From IMG/VR virus record IMGVR_UViG_3300020371_000002: 64,000 bases of DNA; one strand, written 5' to 3'. The first letter of the stretch is position 1; each line of letters opens with the position of its first letter. The notes under the pieces are model-generated. The model did no database searches, was not told where the DNA came from, and saw nothing but the letters and a program-made list of their open reading frames with translations. Source of the stretch: a virus (Duplodnaviria; Caudoviricetes). The position numbers were made by a program, and so were the translations under genes. Shown here piece after piece: positions 16,881 through 62,948 of the stretch.

Positions 16881-17888
16881 TCAGTCAAGTGCAACGTTCA
16901 GGGTGATCTTAATTTGGTCACCGTTGTTCTGAATGTTGTATGGACCGTTTGTAAATCTCTCAGCGTACATGATGCTGGAGTACAAGGTCGCAGTATTCAG
17001 ACCTGCAACACCATTTGCGGTTGCAGTCAGGGAAGGTGTAGTTACAAACTCGTCTGCGTTAGGTACATCGAATACCGTGTAAACGTTAGATTCAAGAGTT
17101 GTGTTACCTGCACCAGCAGCGACATACAGAATGTCACCTGCTCTAAGACCGTGGTTTGTGGCGGTAATCTTACCGAAACTAAATGTGATCGATGGATCAG
17201 TCTGAGGCTGAATGTTGTCGATAAGTGCCTTATCTAAGTAAACAACGTTCAGAGCTCTGTCAAGTCCAATGATTCTAGTTCCTGTTTGAATACCAGGGTT
17301 ACCTGCAACATACTGACCCAAGGTGAGATCATTCATCGTGATGTTGGCATCTACATTGAAGTAGAAGTTACCAACAACTCCGATACATGGATCGACGTTT
17401 GTACCCTTCGAGACAGTTGTTCCGATACCAACACCAGCAGCATGTTCAACACCCTGTAATGCGACAGGCATGTTGTTTGCTCTGGTCACATAATATCCGT
17501 AGATATTACCAGCAGGACCAGTAAAGGTGAAGGTTTGTTCTGGATAGGTTGCGGTTGTACCACTACCAACGTTCTTAATTACCCAACGAGAACCATTCAG
17601 CAGAATACCATACTGCTGAGTGTAATTCTGATCTGTTCTGTTATCCACGCAATTGGGATAACCTGTATTTGCTGTCGTTCCATAACCATTGGTGTTACCA
17701 TCAATGTATGGCTCGAAATATGCTGTGGTAGACGGTACGTCACCTTCCGCTGGGGTGGTATTACTCGTAAACAGTTTGAGTACGAGGTTTCTTGGTGAAG
17801 TATCCTCTAGGTCTTGCACGAAGTTATTCTGAGCAATCAGATAACGGAGAGACTCAATTTCACCAATATTGGGAACTAGTAATGCCAT
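16881..17888 (-). CDS. Putative virion structural protein, 335 aa
   Basis: Late promoter upstream; beta-rich composition; C-terminal GPYNIQNNGDQIKITLNVALD. Confidence 0.7.
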   Translation of the reverse strand: MALLVPNIGEIESLRYLIAQNNFVQDLEDTSPRNLVLKLFTSNTTPAEGDVPSTTAYFEPYIDGNTNGYGTTANTGYPNCVDNRTDQNYTQQYGILLNGSRWVIKNVGSGTTATYPEQTFTFTGPAGNIYGYYVTRANNMPVALQGVEHAAGVGIGTTVSKGTNVDPCIGVVGNFYFNVDANITMNDLTLGQYVAGNPGIQTGTRIIGLDRALNVVYLDKALIDNIQPQTDPSITFSFGKITATNHGLRAGDILYVAAGAGNTTLESNVYTVFDVPNADEFVTTPSLTATANGVAGLNTATLYSSIMYAERFTNGPYNIQNNGDQIKITLNVALD

Positions 17889-51589: not shown

Positions 51590-51913
51590 TTAGTTCAGAC
51601 GCATACCACTAAAGAAAGGAATTGAAGTGCCATCCTGAAGACGAACGTTCCAAACATATGCCTTCTGATATACACGTTCACCTGGCAGACCATTATACTC
51701 AAGGATCGCATTTAGACGACTCTTAGTTGTATTGGACTGCCACCCACCATCATACAATTCGATGAATCCCTCACCGATTGTAGCAATGTGGTTTCCGTGG
51801 AGATATACACGAGAGACCTCAGACTGCTCATCGAAAGTAACAGCGGTATTGGCAGACTGCCAGTTGATGCTGTTAGCGATTGCAGTGTTCATTTGTTGCT
51901 CGATCTTTCTCAT
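51590..51913 (-). CDS. Cyanophage early hypothetical protein, 107 aa
   Basis: MRKIEQQM..AI.....W...NT.V...VYLHGNHIA...GGWQSNTTKSRLNAIL; AAGGA Shine-Dalgarno; promoter element E1 upstream. Confidence 0.7.
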   Translation of the reverse strand: MRKIEQQMNTAIANSINWQSANTAVTFDEQSEVSRVYLHGNHIATIGEGFIELYDGGWQSNTTKSRLNAILEYNGLPGERVYQKAYVWNVRLQDGTSIPFFSGMRLN

Positions 51914-51940: not shown

Positions 51941-51998
51941 ATTATAGGGCATGAGAGGACCTCTGGCGGGTAATAGTGGACACCTTAGAGATTGGCAC
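51941..51998 (-). promoter_or_regulatory. Early promoter element E1
   Basis: Plus-strand GTGGACA-N10-TGGCAC at 51976-51998; -10 TATAAT 29 nt away. Confidence 0.75.
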
Positions 51999-52053
51999 AT
52001 AACTGCTCTGAATTCTCTAAGCATTCGATGGTTTTCTGAAACTCCACAGAGTC

Positions 52054-52082
52054 ATTATACATTGCCCCACTAAGTATGGCAA
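52054..52082 (-). promoter_or_regulatory. Sigma70-type promoter TTGCCA-17-TATAAT
   Basis: Canonical spacing with an extended -10. Confidence 0.65.
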
Positions 52083-52138
52083 ACCTCTGAGGCACTTCGA
52101 GACATTTAGAGTCCTTATATGTGGTTTTGGGAATGTGC

Positions 52139-52167
52139 TTGACTTTTCAGAGATTTCATGGTAGACT
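52139..52167 (+). promoter_or_regulatory. Plus-strand sigma70-type promoter TTGACT-17-TAGACT (antisense to the early array)
   Basis: Near-consensus hexamers, 17-nt spacer and TG-n extension. Confidence 0.6.
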
Positions 52168-52329
52168 GAACGCCAAGATGACTATAAAATCTCCCCTTTA
52201 TTATAAGAACTCACGAAAGAGATAGAGCACGCAACTATGTTTTTTTAACCATTTATTTAATAGCATAAAAAATACTGCCCAGTAACTGAGCAGCATATTC
52301 TGAGATACTTCCGAGGGTATTTGAGCACC

Positions 52330-52515
52330 TCAGAGCACTCCTGATTTCTCCTCTTGAATGATGCTTACTGTATCTCTTAGAATGAGCAAGTTCTCATACA
52401 TAATGCCCTTATCAGGATTGCTCACAGTAGTGTACGGTTTGAGTGCTTGAAGCGTGAGCATTTTAATTAGAGTGAGTTGCTCATCAGTGAAATTAGTTTG
52501 GTATGTTCTAGGCAT
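52330..52515 (-). CDS. Small hypothetical protein
   Basis: 61-aa ORF overlapping the upstream stop. Confidence 0.5.
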   Translation of the reverse strand: MPRTYQTNFTDEQLTLIKMLTLQALKPYTTVSNPDKGIMYENLLILRDTVSIIQEEKSGVL

Positions 52516-52687
52516 TGAATTGTCCTAGGTTTTCAACATAAACGCTCTTCACTCTCTCCTTATCTCTCAGTTCTAAAAGTTCTTTCCAATTCCATTCACT
52601 CGGACGCACACAGTTTGTATCATCTACTGTGAAATCTAGAGTAACACGATAGCGGGTGAATGTACGCTTTTTCGTTTTGAGAGACAT
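52508..52687 (-). CDS. Small hypothetical protein, 59 aa (not in ORF track)
   Basis: MSLKTKKRTFTRYRVTLDFTVDDTNCVRPSEWNWKELLELRDKERVKSVYVENLGQFNA. Confidence 0.55.
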   Translation of the reverse strand: MSLKTKKRTFTRYRVTLDFTVDDTNCVRPSEWNWKELLELRDKERVKSVYVENLGQFNA

Positions 52688-52968
52688 GAGCAGAATAGCG
52701 ATGGGTTAGTGATACACTATTTTAGTGTTTATTGGTCTTATTGTCAATGGCATAACCATAGTAAATTAGCACTTCCTTATATAGATCCTCACTATATTTG
52801 TACATCCGTTCGGCGTAGTTGTTGTGCTTCTGGTGGTTCGAAGTTGCAATGGTGTTGCTCATAATAAATCAGAGTTTCTTGAAGTGTTAAAATTTTGGGC
52901 GCGGCGTCAGTCTCACAAACAATGTAAGATCTTTCACGAGTGTGTACATCTGAAGCAAGGCGAATCAT

Positions 52969-53262
52969 TTACTTAGAATACAATGTGCCAACGTTTGATT
53001 GTATAAAGTCCTTGGTATCTTGTACCGTGGGAAATGTTCTTAATCGGGTCATGATTTGAACGGTTTCGCCATCTTCCAACTTCTGAGGCGTGTACTTATA
53101 AAGAATAAATCCTTCGCCGTCGATGTTAGTAATGATTTGACCAAAGAGCAACCCATTAAAAAAGATCCACTCCTTATGCCACACTTTCTCGTCGGGATCC
53201 ATCTTGTAAGTGACATTGAACTCAGGGCGAGTTGTGCTTACTTGGGGATTGTAGATAACCAT
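52969..53262 (-). CDS. Hypothetical protein, 97 aa
   Basis: ORF in the early array. Confidence 0.6.
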   Translation of the reverse strand: MVIYNPQVSTTRPEFNVTYKMDPDEKVWHKEWIFFNGLLFGQIITNIDGEGFILYKYTPQKLEDGETVQIMTRLRTFPTVQDTKDFIQSNVGTLYSK

Positions 53263-53268
53263 AATGAA

Positions 53269-53481
53269 TTAAGCAGTGAGTTGATAGATTGTAGCGATTT
53301 TAGATTGAATAGACGAAACACGATCAGCAACAGGAATGCCACCAATTAATTCATCCTCTGGGGCATTAATATCATCATACTCAATATACTCATCCAGTGC
53401 GGCACTAATTGTATCCCACTCGGCATCTGTAAAGAGTTGTTTGTAGATTGCGGCGGAAGTTGCTTGAGAATCGAGAGACAT
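53269..53481 (-). CDS. Small acidic hypothetical protein
   Basis: 70-aa ORF with the motif FTDAEWDTISAAL. Confidence 0.6.
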   Translation of the reverse strand: MSLDSQATSAAIYKQLFTDAEWDTISAALDEYIEYDDINAPEDELIGGIPVADRVSSIQSKIATIYQLTA

Positions 53482-53517
53482 AATAAAGTGAAGTAAGTGT
53501 GAACGAAAAAAGGACGA

Positions 53518-53670
53518 TTAGGAAACTTTGATGATGCGATAGCAGTGAGTATCGCTCCACATTTGATTGTAAGTTGCCATCAAGTTCAGGCATTTCATCA
53601 AGTTCATCGGTTGATAAACTGTGTTTTCCCAGTTGCTAACTTTGTGAAATTTGATCTGAAGTTGATACAT
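53518..53670 (-). CDS. Small hypothetical protein; start reassigned to MYQLQ (50 aa)
   Basis: The ORF-track start lies inside promoter element E2; the first ATG after the promoter is at 53670. Confidence 0.5.
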   Translation of the reverse strand: MYQLQIKFHKVSNWENTVYQPMNLMKCLNLMATYNQMWSDTHCYRIIKVS

Positions 53671-53700
53671 TTGAAAAGTGCGATTCGTTTGATTAATACT

Positions 53701-53758
53701 AGTATTGCAGATCTGGCACGGTTTGGCGGATTTAGTGGACACCTTGACGATTGTCCAC
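53701..53758 (-). promoter_or_regulatory. Early promoter element E2
   Basis: Perfect GTGGACA-N10-TGTCCAC at 53735-53758; -10-like AATACT. Confidence 0.75.
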
Positions 53759-53772
53759 CTTGATTTCTCTGC

Positions 53773-54102
53773 TCAACTCTTGTACACTTTCAAAAGTTCA
53801 AGCACACAATAGTAAGCATCATTGAACGAATCGAAAGAATCAACGCCAGATGTTACACTAGTAAATTCAGCACCACTCTCATGATATGTGATGGAATGCT
53901 TACGGCAAACAGTGAATTGATCGACCCATTTAGTATCACTCTCATCACGAATAGCGGTGTGATTGATGTGAATGTTAGGATTCACTTTCGAGCGATAAAT
54001 GGAGCGAGTGTTCAGATGATTTGCTGTGAATTCATCACCATAATAGTTTTCAAATTTGATGCCTTGAGAGAATTGAGAAGCGATAACGTTTGTTTTGTTC
54101 AT
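53773..54102 (-). CDS. Hypothetical protein; start reassigned to MNKTN (109 aa)
   Basis: First ATG downstream of element E3. Confidence 0.5.
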   Translation of the reverse strand: MNKTNVIASQFSQGIKFENYYGDEFTANHLNTRSIYRSKVNPNIHINHTAIRDESDTKWVDQFTVCRKHSITYHESGAEFTSVTSGVDSFDSFNDAYYCVLELLKVYKS

Positions 54103-54108
54103 ATAGGT

Positions 54109-54166
54109 ATGATTGCACAAAAATTACCGCTTTGGCACTTTCCACAGACACTAGTCCCGCTGGCAC
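54109..54166 (-). promoter_or_regulatory. Early promoter element E3 (degenerate)
   Basis: ACAGACA-N10-TGGCAC at 54144-54166; -10-like AATCAT. Confidence 0.55.
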
Positions 54167-54175
54167 ACTACATGT

Positions 54176-54421
54176 TCATGCGGTTACATTGTTAGTTTGT
54201 TCGAGCAATCGTTCCCACTCTTTAACATCTCCACAATAATGGTTAATTACTTCTTCCTCTAGTTCGAGATCATTACACTTTGTGTAATAATCGTAGAGTT
54301 GGTCATAAGCAATCTGGAGCAATGTGTCCATGTCCATGTTATCCACGATTTCATTGGCAAACTTATCACAGATTGCTTCAAATTGCGGATAAGGTAGGCG
54401 ATGTGCGGCAGATTCAGTCAT
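54176..54421 (-). CDS. Small acidic hypothetical protein; likely start MTESAA (81 aa)
   Basis: The ATG at 54421 overlaps the upstream stop. Confidence 0.55.
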   Translation of the reverse strand: MTESAAHRLPYPQFEAICDKFANEIVDNMDMDTLLQIAYDQLYDYYTKCNDLELEEEVINHYCGDVKEWERLLEQTNNVTA

Positions 54422-54734
54422 CGGAGCAAGTTTCGAGTTTGGCGTAGATTGAGTCAATTTCGGGAGGCAATTTGTTCTCGGGAACATCAGTTAAGGCACT
54501 ATCCAAATAATAAAGAATCGTGCTAACTTCGCCTTCCGTGAATGTAATTACATGTTCACGGTTAAGTTCATCTTCCGTGGGCAATCCGTCATCAATAAAT
54601 TCTAACCCTTCGGATTCAGATTCATACCAAAATTTATCCCACTCTTTTGGATCGTTTGTAACATCCTCGGTCATTGGTTTGTAGCAAGTGAGTTTTTTAA
54701 GTTGGTCTTTTAAGTCAGAAAAAATGTCATCCAT
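54414..54734 (-). CDS. Acidic hypothetical protein
   Basis: 106-aa ORF coupled to the upstream gene. Confidence 0.55.
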   Translation of the reverse strand: MDDIFSDLKDQLKKLTCYKPMTEDVTNDPKEWDKFWYESESEGLEFIDDGLPTEDELNREHVITFTEGEVSTILYYLDSALTDVPENKLPPEIDSIYAKLETCSDD

Positions 54735-54922
54735 CAGAAAGGATTGCTCCAGTTGTATGCTTGATAGTCAGTTACATCGCCTTCTTTGTTGAGCATGTCC
54801 ACGAAATTGTTCCATGCTTCACGTTTAGCGATCTTGTCGTATTTGAGTGACTTATCGGACATAACTGCCACTTTCCAGTTGTAACGAAACTGGTCGAGAA
54901 CTTGTGCTTTAGTGTGACGCAT
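54734..54922 (-). CDS. Cyanophage early hypothetical protein, 62 aa
   Basis: TKAQVLDQFRYNW...D.IAKREAWNNFVD.L.K.G...W.NPF; downstream of element E4. Confidence 0.7.
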   Translation of the reverse strand: MRHTKAQVLDQFRYNWKVAVMSDKSLKYDKIAKREAWNNFVDMLNKEGDVTDYQAYNWSNPF

Positions 54923-54948
54923 GTGAAGTGATTTGCTTAACTTTTAAT

Positions 54949-55005
54949 ATAATAACCCATAACCAGTGCAATGGGGAAAATAGTGGACAGCGCGTAAACT
55001 GTCAC
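54949..55005 (-). promoter_or_regulatory. Early promoter element E4
   Basis: GTGGACA-N10-TGTCAC at 54983-55005; -10 TATTAT. Confidence 0.75.
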
Positions 55006-55019
55006 AGTGGGGATTGCCA

Positions 55020-55295
55020 TTAAATCATACATTGTTCAAGAATTGATAGACGAAGAGGCATAGCAGTGTAGGGCGATGTGTCCTCAATGTTGACTACTTC
55101 GCCGATTCTTTTACTGTTGATGGGAGCATGATACTGTTGTTTCTTGGTGTTATAGAATCCCCAGATACAACGAGATTCATCACCATTATTGTAATTAAAC
55201 CGACCATTATATACAGTCCAGATTGCAATAACATTAGTTTTTTGTTGAATGAACTCATAGTGATAACCCTCTGGCGGTTGATGATAAAATTCCAT
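55020..55295 (-). CDS. Cyanophage hypothetical protein, 91 aa
   Basis: HQPPEGYHY...IWGFYN.KK..YHAPINS...TSPYTAM. Confidence 0.65.
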   Translation of the reverse strand: MEFYHQPPEGYHYEFIQQKTNVIAIWTVYNGRFNYNNGDESRCIWGFYNTKKQQYHAPINSKRIGEVVNIEDTSPYTAMPLRLSILEQCMI

Positions 55296-55313
55296 ATAAG
55301 AATTTACATAGTA

Positions 55314-55730
55314 TTAACGAATGTAGAGATAACTGCCTGCCCAGTCAGCACGAGCAAGACATGTTTCTCTGCTGCTCTCATCGAGTAAATTATATCGCAC
55401 TCCGTTTACTTGTGGTTTAGACCATGATGCTGCTTTCCATACGTCACCATTGTTCTTATCAATGAAGCAATGTACACTTCTTTGATTGTAATCTTGGTGG
55501 ATTACTTTCAAGAACCGACGACCAACTTTAATATAAAATTTGTTCTCATGTTCGTCACTCTCTTGAATTTCTTTAATCTTTCGGATGTGATAAACTTCAT
55601 CATCTTGCTGACTAATAATGGCACGTTGATGCCATTTAATGCCATCTTGTTTTAGATCCTCTTGAAGCGCAACGCACAGTGCATTGGCATACTTAACGAT
55701 GAGATCTGTTTGAGAAAGTGTAGCGGTCAT
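55314..55730 (-). CDS. Phage hypothetical protein, 138 aa
   Basis: GRRFLKVI...SVHCFIDK.NGDVWKAASW.KP...VRYNL; ends WAGSYLY. Confidence 0.65.
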   Translation of the reverse strand: MTATLSQTDLIVKYANALCVALQEDLKQDGIKWHQRAIISQQDDEVYHIRKIKEIQESDEHENKFYIKVGRRFLKVIHQDYNQRSVHCFIDKNNGDVWKAASWSKPQVNGVRYNLLDESSRETCLARADWAGSYLYIR

Positions 55731-55732
55731 GA

Positions 55733-55921
55733 TTATTTTGTGGGGAAGTTTTTGAGTACGGCGTCACATAGGTTTTTTTCTAATTCATATAGATCATCAT
55801 AACTTTCAAATCTGAATGAATCAATGATGCTACCAATGTCTTCCATGAGTTGTTCACGAGCAGTCAGCAGATCCAGATTAGTGTTCATTTTGGAATAGGT
55901 GAAAGTTGATATGAAAGACAT
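55733..55921 (-). CDS. Small hypothetical protein
   Basis: REQLMEDI...LCDAV..NFP. Confidence 0.55.
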   Translation of the reverse strand: MSFISTFTYSKMNTNLDLLTAREQLMEDIGSIIDSFRFESYDDLYELEKNLCDAVLKNFPTK

Positions 55922-55924
55922 AAA

Positions 55925-56176
55925 TCAACAGGCACATGCCATTGCAGAGTTGAACAGTTGTGGAATCATAGATTCGTCGGTTACTTGATAACCATAACCA
56001 TGAGTACGAGAATCAAACTCATACTTAAAATCTTTTTTGTTGATGTAACGCTTGGATTGCGTTTTGCCCATGAAAGTGACAACCTTGAGCATCAAGCGAT
56101 TGTGAATCTGACCCGTGTGAAATTTGACGGGATAGAAATCAACAACCATGTTGCCGTCTTTAGAAGTGAGTTGCAT
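55925..56176 (-). CDS. Cyanophage early hypothetical protein, 83 aa
   Basis: MQLTSKDGNMVVDFYPVK...; downstream of element E5. Confidence 0.65.
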   Translation of the reverse strand: MQLTSKDGNMVVDFYPVKFHTGQIHNRLMLKVVTFMGKTQSKRYINKKDFKYEFDSRTHGYGYQVTDESMIPQLFNSAMACAC

Positions 56177-56199
56177 GATGAAATCCCTTTGACTCTTTA

Positions 56200-56257
56200 A
56201 TAATACACCCTGGCGCGTCTCCTGGCGCCTCTGGTGGACTGTTTAGGAAGTGTCCTA
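56200..56257 (-). promoter_or_regulatory. Early promoter element E5
   Basis: GTGGACT-N10-TGTCCT at 56234-56256; -10 TATTAT. Confidence 0.7.
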
Positions 56258-56464
56258 CACTCCCTTGACAGAACTACTAAGATATGTTTCCTTGGCAGCA
56301 CAGATGTTATCAAATAGATTGTCAAATGTTTGTGTGTCTAATCTATCATGATAGTAATTTGTGTTGTAAGCATGAATCATTAGATCATAGAGTGCTTGAT
56401 ACTGACTCTTTGAAACTTCGATGTTTAATCCTTTTTTGTTTGATCCGTAGATGCCTGAAGTCAT
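56255..56464 (-). CDS. Small hypothetical protein
   Basis: 69-aa ORF downstream of element E6. Confidence 0.55.
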   Translation of the reverse strand: MTSGIYGSNKKGLNIEVSKSQYQALYDLMIHAYNTNYYHDRLDTQTFDNLFDNICAAKETYLSSSVKGV

Positions 56465-56489
56465 GTTTCTTATGTGTGTTGTTATTATT

Positions 56490-56547
56490 ATAATAGGAAA
56501 TAATGAGACTAATTACAACTCACAGTGTACACTTTAGAAATTGGCAT
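56490..56547 (-). promoter_or_regulatory. Early promoter element E6
   Basis: GTGTACA-N10-TGGCAT at 56525-56547; -10 TATTAT. Confidence 0.65.
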
Positions 56548-56803
56548 ACTTTGGCAAACATAATTGTTTCTCGTTTGTATAGTGTTTATCAACCAAAGTT
56601 TTAACCTCTTTGTAAGCACCAACGATGGCATCCTTGCCATAATAGTCATGCTCGATCGTATCATATCCAGTGCATGATGATCCCCACTCTGTAACATCGC
56701 TATCAATGCGATTATATAATCCTTTCAAAGTGTATTCAATTAACCCTAACTCTCTTCGAGTTAATGTAATTGTAAATTCTCTGTTGTTTGATGTATCAAG
56801 CAT
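56534..56803 (-). CDS. Hypothetical protein
   Basis: 89-aa ORF with a GGAGG Shine-Dalgarno. Confidence 0.55.
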   Translation of the reverse strand: MLDTSNNREFTITLTRRELGLIEYTLKGLYNRIDSDVTEWGSSCTGYDTIEHDYYGKDAIVGAYKEVKTLVDKHYTNEKQLCLPKYANF

Positions 56804-56966
56804 TTAATTCCTCCATCATTGCATCAACTTCAGCAGCACAAAAACCACAGCGCCAACCCTCGATGTCATCAGCATAAACTGAATATCTGTTGACGAATCT
56901 GCCACTACCAAAATGACAAGGTTCGCCACAGTCTACACAAATTTGTGATTCAAATAAACTTTTCAT
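56796..56966 (-). CDS. Small CxxC...CxxC zinc-finger-like protein, 56 aa (not in ORF track)
   Basis: MKSLFESQICVDCGEPCHFGSGRFVNRYSVYADDIEGWRCGFCAAEVDAMMEELNA. Confidence 0.6.
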   Translation of the reverse strand: MKSLFESQICVDCGEPCHFGSGRFVNRYSVYADDIEGWRCGFCAAEVDAMMEELNA

Positions 56967-57190
56967 TAAACTGCTCCGTATAATGTGTTCATGATGTCTC
57001 TGACTCTTTCTCTATCTAATGAGTCACCATTGCCCCAGTTGTAGTAATCATCATCACGGTGGGCGATGTCATCAAGGTAATAAAGAATGGCGAAAGAGAT
57101 CTGCTCTTTGCTTCTGTTATTCTCAGGATAGATGCCTCCTTTACCGTAGAAACTGAAGACATAATCAATGAACTCTTGAAAGTTGTGCAT
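56966..57190 (-). CDS. Cyanophage hypothetical protein, 74 aa
   Basis: FIDYVFSFYGKGGIYP...GDSLDRERVRDIM; downstream of element E7. Confidence 0.65.
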   Translation of the reverse strand: MHNFQEFIDYVFSFYGKGGIYPENNRSKEQISFAILYYLDDIAHRDDDYYNWGNGDSLDRERVRDIMNTLYGAV

Positions 57191-57213
57191 AATGTATGTG
57201 TGTCTATATGTTA

Positions 57214-57271
57214 ATTGTATATGCTATGAGTAGCAAATAGGACAATAGTATGACGGTTTTTTGATTGTCAC
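57214..57271 (-). promoter_or_regulatory. Early promoter element E7
   Basis: ATGACG-N10-TGTCAC at 57250-57271; -10 TACAAT. Confidence 0.6.
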
Positions 57272-57489
57272 TCAGCATAATTCACTCCGTCAAATACTCT
57301 TAACTCTGTGGTATAGTTGACTAATTGCTCAAATCCATCTTCTGAGATTTTAATCTCTTTGAGCAACTCAGGCGAGGCACATTCGTTGAGATATGTGATA
57401 ATGTACTCAAGTTGTTCGAGTGCTTCAATGCTGAAACCGTGCTTTGCTTCGATCTCTGTAATGTCAGGAAATTCGTTAATCATTGGCAC
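57268..57489 (-). CDS. Small acidic hypothetical protein
   Basis: 73-aa ORF. Confidence 0.5.
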   Translation of the reverse strand: MPMINEFPDITEIEAKHGFSIEALEQLEYIITYLNECASPELLKEIKISEDGFEQLVNYTTELRVFDGVNYAE

Positions 57490-57638
57490 ATGTCCTCGAA
57501 CTGTTCTTTAGCGATAAAAGCACAATGCTCTTCGAGTGCTTCTTGTGTCATTAACTCGGCATAACCTGATTTAATCATGTTTGCCATTTCCTCTTCATAG
57601 AGGTCTTCTAGAATTGATTCATGATGTAAGGTGCTCAT
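57480..57638 (-). CDS. Small hypothetical protein, 52 aa (not in ORF track)
   Basis: MSTLHHESILEDLYEEEM...; GGAG Shine-Dalgarno; downstream of element E8. Confidence 0.6.
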   Translation of the reverse strand: MSTLHHESILEDLYEEEMANMIKSGYAELMTQEALEEHCAFIAKEQFEDMCQ

Positions 57639-57662
57639 GATTGCTCCGTGTTTGATATATTA

Positions 57663-57720
57663 ATAATATCAAATATGGGCATCTATGTGTACAATAGTGT
57701 GCCACTTATCTGATTGGCAC
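57663..57720 (-). promoter_or_regulatory. Early promoter element E8
   Basis: Perfect GTGCCA-N10-TGGCAC at 57699-57720; -10 TATTAT. Confidence 0.75.
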
Positions 57721-57743
57721 TATAATGCATTTTTTCGATAATT

Positions 57744-57905
57744 CTATTCGCCCTTAACTACCAGGCGTAGGTTAGTCACATCCCAGTCAGCATAATTGAA
57801 TAGAATCCAATTAACAGCATCCAATGCATTTGCTCTGTTTTCAATAGTGATGAATTTGTATTCATGTTCACTATTTTTCTTTTGTAGAATTGCTTTGAAA
57901 TTCAT
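57744..57905 (-). CDS. Small hypothetical protein, 53 aa (not in ORF track)
   Basis: MNFKAILQKKNSEHEYKFITIENRANALDAVNWILFNYADWDVTNLRLVVKGE; start coupled to the upstream stop. Confidence 0.45.
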   Translation of the reverse strand: MNFKAILQKKNSEHEYKFITIENRANALDAVNWILFNYADWDVTNLRLVVKGE

Positions 57906-58072
57906 CACCAGATCTCCGTAAAACGTTTGTGTGTTGTTTTAGTCATTCTGCCTTCATTGAGCATGTTGTCACACACTTTGCAGAAGACTTGAAACTTTTC
58001 TTCGCGAGTGAGAGTATCAGCATTCTCACAACTTTTCATGATGCGAAGCAGATATGCTTTGGAAGTAATCAT
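57905..58072 (-). CDS. Small hypothetical protein, 55 aa (not in ORF track)
   Basis: MITSKAYLLRIMKSCENADTLTREEKFQVFCKVCDNMLNEGRMTKTTHKRFTEIW. Confidence 0.6.
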   Translation of the reverse strand: MITSKAYLLRIMKSCENADTLTREEKFQVFCKVCDNMLNEGRMTKTTHKRFTEIW

Positions 58073-58266
58073 TTGAGTTGAATGTCGTAGTCAATAGATT
58101 TGATACACCAACCTGAAGCACATGTGATCTCCTCGATGAGATCATCTTCATCATCTGCTTCCCAACAACCTAGGGCAAGATCCCTTGCTTCGATCTCATC
58201 ATCAAAGGAAATTGTCCCTTGTGAATCTTCAAAGTCAAATTCTATTTCGGTTACATTGAATTGCAT
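58069..58266 (-). CDS. Small acidic hypothetical protein; likely start MQFNVTEIEFDF
   Basis: W.ADDEDDLIEEIT..SGWCIKSIDY. Confidence 0.6.
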   Translation of the reverse strand: MQFNVTEIEFDFEDSQGTISFDDEIEARDLALGCWEADDEDDLIEEITCASGWCIKSIDYDIQLK

Positions 58267-58270
58267 AGGT

Positions 58271-58441
58271 TTAAGCGAGTTCGATAAGTCCTTGGGAAGC
58301 AAGAGCATTCAAAGTTCTGCCATAGTGACCCTGCAACCATTTCCAGGCGCCAGTATCATAAATGTCCTGAAACAGTTGAAGAAATTCTTCCTCTGTAATG
58401 TTATCTGATTCATACTTAAGAAGCAGATCGGTGTTAGGCAT
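58271..58441 (-). CDS. Small hypothetical protein; start reassigned to MPNTD (56 aa)
   Basis: LFQ...DTG.W.WLQGHYGRT...L...GLI; first ATG after element E9. Confidence 0.55.
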   Translation of the reverse strand: MPNTDLLLKYESDNITEEEFLQLFQDIYDTGAWKWLQGHYGRTLNALASQGLIELA

Positions 58442-58772
58442 GAACTGTTTGATTTCTTTGACTCTTATAGTATTGCACATGTTCCCCATCCTTGGTAGGT
58501 TCAGTGGACACTACAGGAACTGGCATAGGATCATCTTGACTGGCACGTTTTGTAACATATGTTAAATCTTTCCAGTCAGATGTGAAACAACATAGTAAGC
58601 AATGCACCATGCAATGCTTATCATTCTTTGCATATTCACAATGTGGTTTAGGTTTAACACCAATTTCAATGGTAATATAATCTTCACACTTAAAATACAC
58701 CCATCCTTTATGTACTAATCCCATTGGCGTATTCCATACGACGTAATCATTTACCTCGGGATCATAGGGCAT
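58434..58772 (-). CDS. Cyanophage hypothetical protein, 112 aa
   Basis: PEVNDYVVW...GWVYFKCEDYITIEIGVKPK. Confidence 0.6.
   Translation of the reverse strand: MPYDPEVNDYVVWNTPMGLVHKGWVYFKCEDYITIEIGVKPKPHCEYAKNDKHCMVHCLLCCFTSDWKDLTYVTKRASQDDPMPVPVVSTEPTKDGEHVQYYKSQRNQTVHA
58469..58526 (-). promoter_or_regulatory. Early promoter element E9
   Basis: GTGGACA-N10-TGGCAT at 58504-58526; -10-like AATACT. Embedded in the 3' end of the upstream ORF. Confidence 0.7.
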
Positions 58773-59702
58773 TTACTTACTCCAGTTCTTAGTGGCGTTG
58801 AAGTTATTATAGGAGAAAATCTCCCTTTTTACCAATTTATATGTGCCATATTTGTTAGTCATGACATAACCCTCGTGTTGGCAGGGTTTCTCACCAATGT
58901 AACAGTCAACATCTTCATAATCTGTAACTCCATCCATGAGCAACTCTTTGATTTCGATGATAAGTTTATAGAGGTGGAAGAGATTAGCATCGAGTCCAGT
59001 CTCTTGAGAGAGTGCAGCAGGATCGATCTCTTTACCAGAGCGAATATACTTATTGATGACTGTTTTTACATGAGTGCCAATCTTTTGGTCGGGAAACTTA
59101 GTGAAACGAATAAGAACTCGTGCCATGCCAATGAGCAAACCGATCTTATTCTTTCTAGTCTTGATCTTTGCCTTAGTATCAAGAAATCGAACGGTGTCGG
59201 ACTCAATAACTGTGTCATCCTCATCGAATGACATAAACTTGGCATTCATAGTTTTCATAGTGTTGCCAAAATACTCGGTGTGAGCAGCAAACACAATGTC
59301 CTGAGTAGGAGCAAACAGAAACTTATATGTTATGGTGTTTGGTGTGTACTCATCGTAACCACCATAACCAATAAAATCACCCTGAAAAACACCCTCTTTG
59401 CGTGGTAGTTTATCCAGGCACATATGAAGTATGGAAGCAACAGCAGGTGTGGTGCCGTGGTTGTCTTCTATATCTCTGTGTGTGTAATTGATCTTTACTT
59501 TAACTTTATTGAATACACTCTTAGTTCCAACAAAAAACCTACCACATTCAGGGTTAATGCCCCATACAATAGCAGGTGCTCCATCATATTTGACTGTCAG
59601 TGTGCTGTTTCTATCACCAAACCACTTCAAAACCTCAATAGCACCAGTTTTGCCGTGATTAAGTATAGAATCCTCGGGGTGCTCAAGATGGGTGTTTTTC
59701 AT
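58773..59702 (-). CDS. Conserved T4-like phage protein (DUF6267-like); start reassigned to MKNTHLEH (309 aa)
   Basis: NTHLEHPED...VKYDGAPAIVWG....GRFFVGTKSVFNK...QGDFIG..YTPNTITY...HEGYV...KLV.RE.FS..NF. Confidence 0.7.
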   Translation of the reverse strand: MKNTHLEHPEDSILNHGKTGAIEVLKWFGDRNSTLTVKYDGAPAIVWGINPECGRFFVGTKSVFNKVKVKINYTHRDIEDNHGTTPAVASILHMCLDKLPRKEGVFQGDFIGYGGYDEYTPNTITYKFLFAPTQDIVFAAHTEYFGNTMKTMNAKFMSFDEDDTVIESDTVRFLDTKAKIKTRKNKIGLLIGMARVLIRFTKFPDQKIGTHVKTVINKYIRSGKEIDPAALSQETGLDANLFHLYKLIIEIKELLMDGVTDYEDVDCYIGEKPCQHEGYVMTNKYGTYKLVKREIFSYNNFNATKNWSK

Positions 59703-59708
59703 AGTTAT

Positions 59709-59766
59709 ATAATAAACTATGAAAACCCACAAATCAAGCGGTTTGTGACGGTTTTTATATAGTCAC
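59709..59766 (-). promoter_or_regulatory. Early promoter element E10
   Basis: GTGACG-N10-AGTCAC at 59745-59766; TTGATT-17-TATTAT. Confidence 0.65.
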
Positions 59767-59810
59767 ACCCCCTGGCGGGGCGGAATCGCGTTTTCTGGCG
59801 GTTTTTATAT

Positions 59811-59835
59811 AAAAAAAGACCCGCCGAGGCGGGTC
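59811..59835 (-). terminator. Rho-independent terminator
   Basis: GACCCGCC/GGCGGGTC stem followed by seven U residues in the minus orientation. Confidence 0.85.
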
Positions 59836-60043
59836 AGGTGAGCGTCCTAGGTTTGTTGGGCATGTCCAGATATGCTTGATGAACTAATTCACCAAATTCT
59901 GTGCAGCATTTGCTCCACTTCTTTCTTAATATCTTACATTCTTCGGTGTTTCTAGTCTCTGGATTTGAAAATAACTCAAACCACTCGTACCATATTGCAG
60001 CACATTCATCTGACTTGACATTTAGATGCGGTTCCTTGTACAT
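59834..60043 (-). CDS. Cyanophage hypothetical protein
   Basis: MYKEPHLN.KSDECA..W.EW...RKKW..CC. Confidence 0.6.
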   Translation of the reverse strand: MYKEPHLNVKSDECAAIWYEWFELFSNPETRNTEECKILRKKWSKCCTEFGELVHQAYLDMPNKPRTLT

Positions 60044-60254
60044 TCGGAACCTCAGTGAGTTGTGTGCTCTTGACTACATTACTATTTACACCATTCCAGT
60101 GCCTTATAACACCAGACACAATGAAAGTATTTGTTACCATGTATGATATGAATATAACAGTGCGAACTACCGCAACATGATTATCATACCGTGAAGTTCT
60201 TCGATCGCTAAAACTTCCAAGTGCGTATTTCCATACGCGCCATATATGTGTCAT
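60006..60254 (-). CDS. Small membrane protein
   Basis: WRVWKYALGSFSD..T..YD..VA.VRT.IF.SY.VTN.FIVSGVIRHW; hydrophobic segment. Confidence 0.65.
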   Translation of the reverse strand: MTHIWRVWKYALGSFSDRRTSRYDNHVAVVRTVIFISYMVTNTFIVSGVIRHWNGVNSNVVKSTQLTEVPNVQGTASKCQVR

Positions 60255-60385
60255 CCGTGTGCATTTTTAAGTGTTGTGATTAAGTGCATATTGCCATGTA
60301 TGTACCCTGCCACAATAATGGCAATGGTTGTCAATATCACCACAACAAATGATATAACCAAACATGTAGGATTATCTTCATTCAT
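60251..60385 (-). CDS. Small single-TM protein, 44 aa (not in ORF track)
   Basis: MNEDNPTCLVISFVVVILTTIAIIVAGYIHGNMHLITTLKNAHG. Confidence 0.5.
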   Translation of the reverse strand: MNEDNPTCLVISFVVVILTTIAIIVAGYIHGNMHLITTLKNAHG

Positions 60386-60653
60386 ATATCAATTTGGAAA
60401 ATGATATGCATAACAGAAATCCTAACATTACCACAACATCCCATGATTTAGTTCTTACAAAATATGGAATTGAAATGAGATCAGCAATAAAATGTGCGAT
60501 GACACCGAGTAATACATTAACATGCAATACGATGAAGTAGGCAACAATAACCATGATGCTGCCTACTATTCTCATTATAACGTCAATTCTTGTTTTTGTG
60601 AGCGTACTCAATGACAATTTTTTTGTGGTAACTATGCTTGTCGGAACATTCAT
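60378..60653 (-). CDS. Small multi-TM membrane protein
   Basis: Three hydrophobic segments; SIPYF.RTK.WDVV.ML.F. Confidence 0.6.
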   Translation of the reverse strand: MNVPTSIVTTKKLSLSTLTKTRIDVIMRIVGSIMVIVAYFIVLHVNVLLGVIAHFIADLISIPYFVRTKSWDVVVMLGFLLCISFSKLIYE

Positions 60654-60709
60654 AATACTTAAGTTTGCCTTTCAAATTGTCCGCAATAATGCGGAGCAGT
60701 TGCATTACA

Positions 60710-60877
60710 TCACTGGTCATTGTTCTCAATGATACGATCAGCAACATCATTCAAAGTGTTGGACATTTGCCTATATCCAGATCCAACATATACTTGACCA
60801 GCAACAACAGTCACTGTACAAATACCCCAGAAAATATAATACCACTGGGATTTAATTTGGTGTTGTAAGTTCATCAT
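60710..60877 (-). CDS. Small single-TM protein, 55 aa (not in ORF track)
   Basis: MMNLQHQIKSQWYYIFWGICTVTVVAGQVYVGSGYRQMS... Confidence 0.55.
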   Translation of the reverse strand: MMNLQHQIKSQWYYIFWGICTVTVVAGQVYVGSGYRQMSNTLNDVADRIIENNDQ

Positions 60878-61050
60878 TTCATCAGCATTGTTGCCTTCAC
60901 AGTTTCTTGTAATTTCATGTAGAGTTTGACTTGAACACGGAGCATCTCTTTCAGAGTTGCCATGTCATCACATTCTTCAATTTCTCTTGATAATTTCTCA
61001 TACTCAAACATCTTAGATGTTGTCTGCAGCGAGATGTCGTCCGATTTCAT
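60874..61050 (-). CDS. Helical hairpin protein, NblA-like candidate, 58 aa (not in ORF track)
   Basis: MKSDDISLQTTSKMFEYEKLSREIEECDDMATLKEMLRVQVKLYMKLQETVKATMLMK; GGAG Shine-Dalgarno. Family assignment by eye only. Confidence 0.45.
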   Translation of the reverse strand: MKSDDISLQTTSKMFEYEKLSREIEECDDMATLKEMLRVQVKLYMKLQETVKATMLMK

Positions 61051-61057
61051 AATACTC

Positions 61058-61222
61058 CTACATTGTGAGTTTGTATCTTATGTATTCAAGTTTTTCAACA
61101 ATTCGATCGTGTTTAACTGATGGGTGATTGTTTTGCTCTCTTGCCTTATTCCATCCATCAACTCTTTTCATGCAGTTCAGAACATAGTCTAATTCTTCCA
61201 GCGAAAAGTCATTGAGATTCAT
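61058..61222 (-). CDS. Small hypothetical protein, 54 aa (not in ORF track)
   Basis: MNLNDFSLEELDYVLNCMKRVDGWNK... Confidence 0.45.
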   Translation of the reverse strand: MNLNDFSLEELDYVLNCMKRVDGWNKAREQNNHPSVKHDRIVEKLEYIRYKLTM

Positions 61223-61518
61223 ACAGTTTTTTCTTGTCTAAAGTGTGCATCTAGATGCTCTTCTAGTTCTTCAAGAGCATTGAGTTTGGCGGATCCTTCA
61301 GGATCAGAGTTTAACATTTCACTGTAATAATACAGTGCATCCGCTAAGAGCGAACGTTGATCTTCTGTAATTTTACATTCAAGTTGATACATTTTGCTGT
61401 ACTGATTGATCTGCAATAGGGACATTAAATGCAACGATGGTCCTAGGAATGTTAGAGTTCGTTGGCGGGCATTCATGATAGATTGTGGAGGGGAAAATAA
61501 TAATGTCACCCTCTTCAA
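61219..61518 (-). CDS. Small hypothetical protein (true start probably MYQLECK near 61390)
   Basis: The N-terminal part overlaps the oxygenase gene. Confidence 0.45.
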   Translation of the reverse strand: MKRVTLLFSPPQSIMNARQRTLTFLGPSLHLMSLLQINQYSKMYQLECKITEDQRSLLADALYYYSEMLNSDPEGSAKLNALEELEEHLDAHFRQEKTV

Positions 61519-61960
61519 CTTCAGGATGCAAGTGTGTTACAGTGCCAAAGAATGGATCAGGCATAGGCGTCCAAAACCTTGTGCTGGGATGTTTCTCTTT
61601 ATCATAATCGAGATAAAGTATGCAAGAGAAATTACCAAACCCATGATTATGTAGGGGATGATGATCTGCACCTGTGTACATTTGTGTCCACATTTGCCAC
61701 TCACTTGGTTGTTCAACCAGCACACCCGCACTGTCAAAAAATCCAACGAGTTCATCTTGAATGACCTCGATGAATTTATACATGTACGGTGGTTTATTAT
61801 TATACTGGAAAAAGTCAGAATAGCAAATGTCGATACGATCCTGATCTGGTTTTAAGTCAACCAGTTCCTTAATTATCTCTTTCTTTTGTTCCCAATTAGA
61901 TAGGGATAGTCTCCAGAAAGAGATGCTAAAGAAAGGTATCTGTTCAACTTTGATACTCAT
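61379..61960 (-). CDS. 2OG-Fe(II) oxygenase-like protein
   Basis: W...Y......HPLHNHG...SCILYL; EGDIIIFPSTIYHE...RTIVAFN (HxH...H...R jelly-roll signature). Confidence 0.85.
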   Translation of the reverse strand: MSIKVEQIPFFSISFWRLSLSNWEQKKEIIKELVDLKPDQDRIDICYSDFFQYNNKPPYMYKFIEVIQDELVGFFDSAGVLVEQPSEWQMWTQMYTGADHHPLHNHGFGNFSCILYLDYDKEKHPSTRFWTPMPDPFFGTVTHLHPEVEEGDIIIFPSTIYHECPPTNSNIPRTIVAFNVPIADQSVQQNVST

Positions 61961-62121
61961 GACTTTTTCTTTCCTCTTCTTCTAGTAGCAGGTTTTTTAG
62001 GGTCTTTACTCCTTGGGTGACGTTTAAGATCTTTCTTTAAGTCCCTAAGGAACTTGAGATGCTTCTGTATTGATGTGTAAGGAGCAAGTGAATCAAATTC
62101 TTTAGGGACTTTCCAAGTCAT
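61957..62121 (-). CDS. Small basic protein, 54 aa (not in ORF track)
   Basis: MTWKVPKEFDSLAPYTSIQKHLKFLRDLKKDLKRHPRSKDPKKPATRRRGKKKS; both ends coupled to neighbouring genes. Confidence 0.5.
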   Translation of the reverse strand: MTWKVPKEFDSLAPYTSIQKHLKFLRDLKKDLKRHPRSKDPKKPATRRRGKKKS

Positions 62122-62525
62122 TCTTCTAGACCACCTTCAGGAATATCAACGAGGACACAATTATCGTTAGTGTCATAACAGAACCATTCACCTTCATTGA
62201 AGATGTAGGCATACTCACCCCATGAATCTTTAGTACACTGGAAATACTCCGTGATAGACTCATGATGTTGTGGTTCTACACCACTATCACCACGCTCAGC
62301 ATAATAGAGTGGGCGATTGGTCTCAATATCGTTGCGATCCCAGTCAGTATCTGACCAGGCACAAGAAATATCTCCACCATCAATTAGATCGGTTACTTTC
62401 TCCTTCGTATTGAACTTTGAGTTGAGTACCTTACCCAACCAAGCAGGATAACCATCCCAATGATGATAAACAGATACAATAGATTCATCTTTGAGTTGAA
62501 TACCGATGCGTGAACGTGTTGCCAT
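62118..62525 (-). CDS. Conserved phage hypothetical protein (HWDGYP family)
   Basis: MATRSRIG...SVYHHWDGYP..LG..L...GGDIS...EYAYIF...W. Confidence 0.75.
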   Translation of the reverse strand: MATRSRIGIQLKDESIVSVYHHWDGYPAWLGKVLNSKFNTKEKVTDLIDGGDISCAWSDTDWDRNDIETNRPLYYAERGDSGVEPQHHESITEYFQCTKDSWGEYAYIFNEGEWFCYDTNDNCVLVDIPEGGLEE

Positions 62526-62635
62526 GATGAAGAAAGAAGAATAAAAGGGTAGAGGGGAGGTCTCGCGGCAGGAGACACAATTACATAGACCCTCTGTGTG
62601 TTGTGTGTGAGGCGTCAGAGATCTCTGACTCTTTA

Positions 62636-62692
62636 ATAATACACCCTGGCGCGCCTTGTGGCACTCTTAGTGGACAGTTCAGTCACCGTCCT
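62636..62692 (-). promoter_or_regulatory. Early promoter element E11
   Basis: GTGGACA-N10-CGTCCT at 62670-62692; -10 TATTAT; shares 28 identical bp with E5. Confidence 0.7.
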
Positions 62693-62948
62693 CAAAGTAA
62701 TCTCCTTGGGTAGAAAACTCCAGTTCGGCGATCTCTTGGTTGCTGAGTCCAGTAATATCACCCAAGAATAGAATTTCACTATCCCATCCATCCTCAGTAT
62801 CGCCAATCAGGAACATTTCCTGTGCGATTGCTTTGGCGTCATCATATTTATCGTTGTCAATGAGTTCAGTCAACCGTCGTGAAATAACGTTGTCGATGAC
62901 ATCCAGGCAACGATCACGGTTGTATTCGATGGTTTCTTGTTCGTTCAT
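62679..62948 (-). CDS. Acidic hypothetical protein
   Basis: 89-aa ORF. Confidence 0.55.
   Translation of the reverse strand: MNEQETIEYNRDRCLDVIDNVISRRLTELIDNDKYDDAKAIAQEMFLIGDTEDGWDSEILFLGDITGLSNQEIAELEFSTQGDYFEDGD

Follow-up and report, generated by a model that had tools for sequence, protein, structure and literature searches.

A repeated two-armed promoter element before small genes of a T4-like cyanophage and its likeness to a host regulatory half-site

Doron et al. 2016 are said to have described a novel regulatory element that controls the early genes of Syn9 and P-TIM40, and this element is reportedly conserved among T4-like cyanophages. The T4-type phages RB49 and phi1 reportedly carry the promoter-early stem-loops (PeSLs) attributed to Arbiol et al. 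2010, which in T4-type coliphages are said to have been proposed to promote recombination. Among activator sites, NtcA recognizes GTA-N8-TAC centred at -41.5 and CRP recognizes TGTGA-N6-TCACA, with the sites of both factors centred at -41.5 or -61.5. At the middle promoters of T4, the MotA box has its centre at -30 and depends on the phage proteins MotA and AsiA, both of which are missing from cyanophages (PMC5780444). Another described site is CGRE1 of the Yfr2 small-RNA promoters, which is bound by PMM1637/PlmA, measures 21-22 nt with GTTG flanks, and has its near edge at -55 or -20 (PMC6191309, Lambrecht et al. 2018). The yfr5 promoter keeps one CGRE1 half only, and it was not shifted by PMM1637 in EMSA (PMC6191309).

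The window analysed here is the whole 64,000-nucleotide stretch of viral DNA, and its sequence matches identify the source as a T4-like cyanomyovirus, a virus of marine Synechococcus. A megablast search with the window matched Synechococcus myoviruses exclusively, at about 85% identity to known isolates and over short stretches only. The product of the gene behind the first promoter copy (E1) matches the Pfam family Kyano_Gp96, and genes nearby match cyanophage PHROGs. Giant structural ORFs occupy 1-50 kb of the window, and all 11 copies of the element lie upstream of ORF starts in a setting of small non-structural genes. These observations support the view that the copies are promoters heading a cluster of small ORFs of unknown function. 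A genome near-identical to the window (G001) differs from it by two indels and served for comparison.

The original prediction had placed eleven copies of an inverted repeat before ORF starts, and all eleven places do exist on the minus strand, with an ATG at every coordinate it gave. Its half-site formula held in part. When the copies were scored by mismatch count against GTG-N(1-2)-CA-N10-TG-N(1-2)-CAC, six fitted well, four of them perfectly and two with one mismatch, whereas five carried two or three mismatches. The perfect copies are E1, E2, E4 and E8. The E1 promoter (51941..51998, minus strand, as are all features listed below) has its dyad GTGCCA-N10-TGTCCAC at 51998-51976, followed by a 29-nt spacer whose -35 slot holds CCGCCA, the -10 box TATAAT (51946-51941), and an ATG at 51913; it is conserved in G001. 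In E2 (53701..53758), GTGGACA-N10-TGTCCAC at 53758-53735 precedes a 28-nt spacer containing CCGCCA and GTGCCAG boxes, the -10 box AATACT (53706-53701), and an ATG at 53670, with 14/14 template matches. E4 (54949..55005) combines GTGACA-N10-TGTCCAC at 55005-54983 with a 28-nt spacer, the -10 box TATTAT (54954-54949), and an ATG at 54922. E8 (57663..57720) carries GTGCCA-N10-TGGCAC at 57720-57699, GATATT or TATTAT as its -10 box (57670-57663), and an ATG at 57638; at position 57649 of its leader, G001 has two additional ORFs (570 bp).

Two further promoters depart from the formula by one mismatch. E6 (56490..56547) reads ATGCCA-N10-TGTACAC at 56547-56525, with TTGTAA in the -35 slot, the -10 box TATTAT (56495-56490), and an ATG at 56464. 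E9 (58469..58526) reads ATGCCA-N10-TGTCCAC at 58526-58504, with the -10 box AATACT (58474-58469), the leader TATAAGAGTCAAAG that is common to Syn9 cassettes, and an ATG at 58441.

The weak copies with two mismatches are E3, E7, E10 and E11, and E5 has three. E3 (54109..54166) has GTGCCA-N10-TGTCTG at 54166-54145, GTGCCA in the -35 slot, and AATCAT or TGCAAT as its -10 box; since its ATG (54102) lies 6 nt past that box, its transcript would have little or no leader. E7 (57214..57271) has GTGACA-N10-CGTCAT at 57271-57250, the -10 box TACAAT (57219-57214), and an ATG at 57190, and in G001 a T replaces the C to give TGTCAT, leaving one mismatch and standing one step nearer the consensus. E10 (59709..59766) has GTGACT-N10-CGTCAC at 59766-59745, which can also be written GTGAC-N12-GTCAC, above a core promoter TTGATT-17-TATTAT (59737-59709) and an ATG at 59702, again 6 nt past the -10 box. 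This copy comes after an intrinsic terminator found by the terminator scan (59818..59835), in which a T run follows a GC-rich stem of 7 bp; it closes the transcription unit upstream of E10. In E11 (62636..62693) the upstream arm is weak (GAGGACG-N10-TGTCCAC at 62693-62670), GTGCCA fills the -35 slot, the -10 box is TATTAT (62641-62636), and a leader of about 110 nt runs to an ATG at 62525. E5 (56200..56257) has the weak dyad TAGGACA-N10-AGTCCAC at 56257-56234, two GCGCCAG boxes in its spacer, the -10 box TATTAT (56205-56200), the leader AAGAGTCAAAGGG, and an ATG at 56176. The same scan found a terminator-like hairpin with a T run at 52272..52296, after the ORF at 52330-52515; it lies upstream of E1 and of an ORF-poor stretch.

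The distance from dyad to -10 box is 28-30 nt in all eleven copies, as had been claimed. Seven-letter arms stand 28-29 nt and six-letter arms 28-30 nt from the box, which puts the inner edge of the arm 34-36 nt from it. The reported nnGCCA in the -35 slot was recovered in E1, E2, E3, E5 and E11, and E4 and E9 have xxxCCA there; in most cases the slot holds C-rich letters (ccGCCA or CCCCCA) instead of TTGACA. A centre near -52 also holds (-52.5), provided that transcription starts 7 nt past the -10 box. The arms (GTGMCA and TGKCCAC), the 10-nt gap and the centre at about -52.5 rule out a CRP or NtcA site, in agreement with the original prediction. In layout, the copies do resemble both the T4 middle promoters, with their MotA/AsiA sigma appropriation, and the class II NtcA promoters of cyanobacteria: each has a -10 box, a poor or missing -35 element and, at a set distance farther upstream, the site of a factor. 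The site in the window differs from these in being 22-24 bp long and centred at about -52.5.

Statistical support was assessed by shuffling the window 60 times with a first-order Markov model (30 times for the test allowing two mismatches). Perfect dyads occur at 4 sites (8 over both strands) versus 0.83 expected, and a perfect dyad with a -10 box at 28-30 nt occurs 4 times versus 0.03; these four all lie on the gene strand and span 51.9-57.7 kb. With up to one mismatch there are 7 dyads with a -10 box, 6 of them on the gene strand, versus 1.27 expected. The repeated two-armed site marking promoters is real. With up to two mismatches the count is 28 versus 16.4 expected, so that the copies with two or three mismatches are not significant by dyad alone, and the five weak copies can be counted as members only tentatively and through their context. 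That context includes the core promoter that E5 and E11 have in common, identical over 29 nt, and the version of E7 in G001, which stands nearer the consensus.

The same cassette occurs in Syn9, a phage of a different genus, with the same arms, the 28-30-nt spacing, the -10 box and the leader AAGAGTCAAAGG. Perfect Syn9 dyads with a -10 box stand before gp55, gp61, gp68 and gp73 and at 52997, while imperfect cassettes precede gp75 (one mismatch) and gp63 (an 11-nt gap), all of them on the gene strand. A scan of IMG/VR with the pattern GTGNCA-N10-TGTCCACTA found at least 118 stretches, and among the matches listed a -10 box lies at 28-30 nt in 64 of 88 (73%), compared with about 7% by chance. 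Columns left free by the pattern are also conserved at the 84 unique sites among the matches listed, with position 4 being A or C in 82, position 8 being T in 79, and position 16 being C or G in every one. The consensus of these 84 environmental sites, T-GTG-M-CA-S-T ... A-A-S-TGTCCAC, describes two 9-bp half-sites that face each other with 4 bp between them, and the matches listed come from phages of both Synechococcus and Prochlorococcus types. The cassette is common to many T4-like cyanophages and abundant in cyanophage genomes and metagenomes. The original prediction had pointed to a comparable early-gene motif reported in T4-like cyanophages, and the presence of the cassette before six named Syn9 genes and in many IMG/VR contigs bears this out.

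Given its presence in Syn9, the element most likely corresponds to the early-gene control element attributed above to Doron et al. 2016. Both belong to the same virus group, and identical cassettes precede small genes of Syn9; what differs is the phage itself, given its limited identity to known isolates noted above. The promoter type has very probably already been reported for Syn9, and the window would then represent another phage carrying a known element. Among the other papers searched, none quotes the motif.

We take the copies to be instances of a promoter cassette with which T4-like cyanophages head sets of small, early-type genes, and put the probability of this reading at roughly 0.8. 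Each cassette consists of the two-armed site of 22-24 bp, a spacer of 28-30 nt whose GC-rich and AT-rich patches alternate with a period of about one helical turn, the -10 box and, in some copies, the shared leader. The -10 box would be read by the RNA polymerase of the host, carrying the primary sigma factor. Given the poor -35 slot, the polymerase would need a DNA-binding protein, presumably one present already at DNA entry, that occupies the two-armed site centred at about -52.5 and recruits or stabilizes it. On this reading the site would be an activating one and the genes early, with the whole promoter set firing together at the start of infection.

Which protein might read the site is suggested by a comparison with host promoters. 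In marine Synechococcus and Prochlorococcus, the Yfr2 promoters (Rfam RF01701) contain CAACTGGCAC-N-GTGCCAGTTG, which fits the published description of CGRE1. The 9-bp phage half-site GTGMCAGTT is the same as the host CGRE1 half-site; among the IMG/VR matches listed, the phage columns left free agree with it at positions 4, 7, 8 and 9, and the base beside GTG is A or T in host and phage sites alike. The register is also shared, in that five distal host promoters (L103, L254, L258, L269 and L280) have GTGNCA at 45-47 nt from the -10 box, the distance found for the upstream arm, and that arm only, of the phage site. The arrangement differs, with AACTGGCAC-N1-GTGCCAGTT back to back in the host and GTGCCAGTT-N4-AACTGKCCAC, the halves swapped, in the phage, whose downstream arm often has one extra base. 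The phage GTGMCA arm has no second half upstream of it; among the matches listed, positions -5 to -1 are unconserved. With its halves swapped and 4 bp apart, the phage site is ruled out as a back-to-back CGRE1-type palindrome of 21-22 bp. The host GntR-type regulator PlmA may still be the best candidate reader, testable but imperfect, and we hold this as a tentative proposal. Against it, one rigid dimer cannot bind the host and phage arrangements alike, and the failure of PMM1637 to shift the half-site promoter of yfr5 (PMC6191309) also speaks against it.

Next in standing, though rather unlikely, is a reader encoded by the phage: either an activator that the virion delivers and that enters together with the DNA, or the product of an early or middle gene that binds the site and shuts early promoters off when middle transcription starts. 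The motif search across phages and hosts proposed with the original prediction, which recovered the cassette in the phages, did not find the phage arrangement enriched in hosts. Three complete host genomes held 4-6 matches per genome versus 2-4 for the control, none of them at promoters, and a stricter form of the arrangement gave 6 matches in 101 host genomes versus 8 for the reversed control. Such absence from host promoters would suit a phage reader, as would the phage-specific look of a site conserved across Synechococcus- and Prochlorococcus-type phages, and Syn9 gp230 is annotated as a small 'transcriptional regulator'. However, a half-site equal to that of host CGRE1 at nine positions and in the same register is difficult to account for unless a host protein reads it, and early genes have to fire ahead of any phage protein synthesis. 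To our knowledge, no packaged DNA-binding protein has been described in these phages, which also counts against this explanation. A site centred at -52.5 without overlap of the core promoter is, moreover, unlike most repressor sites.

Far less probable is a structural role for the inverted repeat at the nucleic-acid level: as a stem-loop or cruciform, it would terminate or process transcripts that read through, or else promote recombination in the manner of PeSLs. Like PeSLs, the element is repeated, joined to presumed early promoters and placed at the head of small gene cassettes. Of the two indels that separate G001 from the window, one has an edge in a cassette leader, that of E8. Near E1, E4, E5, E8 and E9, different cassettes are joined in the contigs of related phages, a weak sign given their short flanks. 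The terminator scan also flagged the E4 dyad, as a weak hairpin whose tail is T-rich. Yet the letters are conserved rather than their pairing: among the IMG/VR matches listed, positions 7 and 16 form 31 Watson-Crick pairs versus 37 expected, positions 8 and 15 pair at chance frequency or below, and the fixed TGTCCAC arm offers no pairing partner to the A or C at position 4. Stems are just 5-7 bp with loops of 4-10 nt, and most copies lack a T run. The missing covariation of the arms argues for a protein site and not a hairpin, and because the arms are not kept complementary, the element is ruled out as a PeSL, from which it also differs in its unrelated sequence and different host group.

Ordinary sigma-70 promoters whose upstream repeat merely reflects shared ancestry of duplicated cassettes are equally improbable: the 29-nt core that E5 and E11 share identically does suggest duplication, and E6 (TTGTAA) and E10 (TTGATT) have acceptable -35 boxes, but inter-arm spacers and flanks are unrelated among the copies while the arms and the -10 distance are kept, and their persistence across Syn9 and the 84 unique environmental sites among the matches listed indicates selection on the site rather than recent duplication.

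Returning to the promoter cassette and its candidate host reader, it is conceivable, at odds well short of even, that PlmA, the only GntR-type regulator of the host, is borrowed by T4-like cyanophages to launch their infection programme. No link between PlmA and cyanophages was found in the literature searched. With PlmA as the reader, the phage early promoters would present two outward-facing CGRE1 halves in the host register. Through PII-PipX and Yfr2, PlmA has ties to the cell's nitrogen and light status, and its borrowing, if true, would mean that early phage transcription is tuned by, or made independent of, the metabolic state of the host.

Eleven minus-strand candidate promoters (E1–E11), lying between 51941 and 62693 and each 5′ of an ORF start, share one order of parts: an upstream arm, exactly 10 nt, a downstream arm in inverted orientation, a spacer of 28–30 nt, a −10 box and an ATG. 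The upstream arm reads GTG(A/C)CA or GTGGACA, the downstream arm is TGTCCAC (TGGCAC or TGTACAC in some copies), and the −10 box occurs as TATTAT, TATAAT, TACAAT or AATACT. The ATG follows 6–30 nt past the −10 box, with the exception of E11, where it is about 110 nt away. Counted from a transcription start 7 nt past the −10 box, the dyad would extend from about −64 to −41 with its centre at −52.5, in line with the original prediction of a centre near −52; the GCCA noticed in the −35 slot is likewise present, as xxGCCA, in E1, E2, E3, E5 and E11.

The copies were scored by their mismatches to GTG-N1-2-CA-N10-TG-N1-2-CAC. E1, E2, E4 and E8 match perfectly, one mismatch is seen in E6 and E9, two in E3, E7, E10 and E11, and three in E5. 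Perfect dyads with a −10 box at 28–30 nt number 4 versus 0.03 expected from Markov shuffles of the window, and at one mismatch or fewer there are 7 (6 on the gene strand) versus 1.27. At two or fewer, background matches are common (28 versus 16.4 expected), so it is their context that supports the five weak copies: all of them fall within short gaps 5′ of ORFs, E5 and E11 have the same 29-nt core promoter, and E7 comes nearer the consensus in the near-identical record G001. A rigid 7-N10-7 template gave a modest enrichment (8 sites with at least 11 of 14 matches versus 3.0 expected), and an iterative weight matrix lacking the −10 constraint was dropped when it drifted into coding-sequence noise. 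The repeated element first proposed from eleven copies is real and non-random in six solid ones, the other five being weak by the same scoring and shuffles, and these dyads form a genuine promoter family that had been correctly spotted. As perfect palindromes, one for each arm type, E2 (53758–53735) and E8 (57720–57699) are clean test substrates. CRP and NtcA, already thought not to match, are rejected on sequence and on geometry, their spacing being wrong, and an UP element is rejected because the dyad is not AT-rich and its spacing is wrong.

The long ORFs of the window are all on the minus strand, with giant structural genes (up to 3059 aa) filling 1–50 kb and a run of small ORFs at 51.9–62.7 kb. 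A megablast of the region matched only the Synechococcus myoviruses S-SCSM2R, S-RIM50 and S-H25, in short stretches at 83–87% identity. The gene behind E1 encodes a product matching Pfam Kyano_Gp96, and further products have their matches among cyanophage PHROGs of unknown function, DUF6267, DUF7717 and a 2OG-Fe(II) oxygenase; scanning the window for Rfam families and tRNAs gave no matches. The nearest record, G001, is a 148.7-kb IMG/VR fragment (69% complete, without psbA) with 98.6–99% identity over the whole length of the window. There, E7 is one step nearer the consensus, and one more perfect copy, GTGGTCA-N10-TGGCAC followed 30 nt on by TATTAT, occurs at 17456–17434, far from the main cluster, so that the regulon reaches beyond the range first assigned to it.

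A similar early-gene motif has reportedly been described in T4-like cyanophages, and the same cassette was found both in IMG/VR contigs and in Syn9, a T4-like cyanophage of another genus. In Syn9 it lies 5′ of the small genes gp55, gp61, gp63, gp68, gp73 and gp75, with the same arms and the same 28–30 nt to the −10 box; the perfect copies with a −10 box are all on the gene strand, and several share the leader TATAAGAGTCAAAGG with E5, E9 and E11. The novel regulatory element described by Doron et al. in 2016 reportedly governs early genes in Syn9 and in P-TIM40 and is said to be conserved among T4-like cyanophages. The window cassette is most likely that element, an equation that rests on finding the cassette in Syn9 itself; no paper found in a literature search quotes the motif sequence. 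This kind of promoter has thus very probably been described already for T4-like cyanophages, and the window adds nothing new in kind.

Scanning IMG/VR with GTGNCA-N10-TGTCCACTA returned at least 118 stretches, from which 88 matches in 80 loci were examined. Among the matches listed, 64 of 88 (73%) have a −10 box at 28–30 nt, where about 7% would be expected from the shuffle ratio. Column conservation was read at the positions left free by the search pattern, in 84 unique sites of the scan: T precedes GTG in 61, arm position 4 is A or C in 82, position 7 is G or C, position 8 is T in 79, and the mirror A-A-(C/G) precedes TGTCCAC. This makes each half-site 9 bp in length and gives the full site as T-GTGMCAST-N4/5-AASTGTCCAC.

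This half-site has a counterpart in the host. Marine Synechococcus genomes were obtained by a psbA search and their Yfr2 small-RNA genes located with Rfam RF01701, initially in three complete genomes and afterwards in 31 from the family. The Yfr2 promoters carry CAACTGGCAC-N-GTGCCAGTTG, or a GTGACA variant, a sequence that fits the published CGRE1, an element of 21–22 nt with GTTG flanks 13–14 nt apart and a near edge at about −55, or −20 in some promoters (Lambrecht et al. 2018, PMC6191309). The 9-bp half-site GTG(A/C)CAGTT is identical in host and phage sites, and so is its register: GTGNCA lies 45–47 nt from the −10 box in the distal-type host promoters (L103, L254, L258, L269 and L280), as does the upstream arm in the phage, with a mode of 46. 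However, the host halves stand back to back around a 1-nt centre, whereas the phage halves face each other across 4 bp, and the phage downstream arm often has one extra base. In hosts the phage arrangement is not used: it gave 4–6 matches per genome versus 2–4 for a reversed control in the three complete genomes, none of them in promoter context; its stricter 9-bp form gave 6 matches versus 8 for the control in 101 host genomes.

CGRE1 pulled down, and was shifted by, the GntR-type regulator PMM1637/PlmA, and the yfr5 promoter, which keeps only one CGRE1 half, was not shifted (PMC6191309). We put the probability that PlmA reads the phage dyad at roughly 0.3: the shared half-site and register make it a testable candidate, yet the swapped order, the yfr5 result and the lack of host use make it an imperfect one. 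No paper linking PlmA to cyanophages was found in the searchable literature. That the dyad is read instead by a phage protein, either an activator that comes with the phage or a repressor that acts later, is an unlikely alternative.

Among the Yfr2 promoters examined, about half carry CGRE1 over the −35 region and not at −55, GTGCCA lying 10–13 nt from the −10 box in six of them (L100, L101, L102, L104, L263 and L273); a single factor would then act from two very different positions. In one picocyanobacterial genome (G037, C1:114042–114063), a site resembling that of the phage reads GTGCCACTTATACAACTGGCAC, then AGTAAATCCC, and has an A/T-rich box some 29 nt further on; it could be a phage-type host promoter or a phage remnant.

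A hairpin function would need the arms to covary, and they do not. Among the 84 listed sites, positions 7 and 16 (each G or C) pair in 31, where independence would give 37, positions 8 and 15 pair at chance level, and the A or C at position 4 is in no case complementary to the fixed downstream arm. What is conserved is letters and not pairing, which points to a sequence-specific protein reading the dyad. A structural or recombinational role like that of PeSL, the promoter-early stem-loop of T4-type coliphages, is accordingly very improbable, even though, of the two indels that distinguish G001 from the window, one starts inside the E8 leader, so that cassettes may still mark exchange points. 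That indel, about 15 nt past the E8 −10 box at window position 57649, adds two ORFs to G001 (about 133 and 55 aa; 570 bp, 107847–108416), and the first gene driven by this promoter therefore differs between the two phages; a marine RNA-run contig has the G001 form. The other, 55734–55914, is present in the window only, holds a 62-aa ORF (55733..55921) and has neither edge at a cassette. Joints in relatives' RNA-run contigs had flanks under 30 nt and were not used as evidence. Plain duplication of σ70 promoters, although E5 and E11 have identical core promoters over 29 nt, is likewise very improbable.

In the 84 listed IMG/VR sites (L135–L252), the 28-nt spacer has GC-rich patches at −36..−32, −27..−22 and −16..−13 with AT-rich sequence between, a phasing of about one helical turn. 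The patches appear in E2, E5 and E11 as two direct GYGCCAG boxes 11–12 bp apart, and in Syn9 gp61 and gp75 as three phased TCTGCC or TTGCCC repeats. Some copies have other peculiarities. E3 (ATG 54102) and E10 (ATG 59702) have the start codon just 6 nt past the −10 box, so that, should these boxes be used, the transcripts would have little or no leader. Between a terminator and E10 stand two copies of the direct repeat TATATAAAAACCG, 50 nt apart (59811–59799 and 59761–59749), and the second of them occupies the E10 dyad spacer. The leader of E11, unusually long at about 110 nt before ATG 62525, is headed by a perfect 16-bp palindrome, GTCAGAGATCTCTGAC (62629–62614), which begins at the predicted +1. 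Finally, the ORF-poor 330 bp at 51999–52329 contain a good σ70-type promoter (TTGCCA-17-TATAAT, 52082–52054) and a terminator (52296–52272), and parts are skipped in contigs of related phages; this stretch may encode a small RNA, and Rfam gave no match for it.

These results establish the anatomy, statistics and conservation of the cassettes and their host-like half-site, while early timing, activation and the identity of the binding protein are inferred, and the mechanism that we favour is as follows. Host RNA polymerase holoenzyme would use the −10 box, and a pre-existing protein on the two-armed site near −52.5 would compensate for the poor, C-rich −35 slot by recruiting or stabilizing polymerase. 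With such a protein on all cassettes, these would fire together at the onset of infection.

T4-like cyanophages kill a considerable fraction of the main primary producers in the ocean, and the cassette bears on how they turn on their earliest genes while lacking MotA, AsiA and Alt. The window sharpens a testable idea, that the phage site combines two halves of a host operator, kept in the register of the host and swapped in order. If PlmA reads this site, the nitrogen and light signalling of the host would feed into early transcription of the phage.
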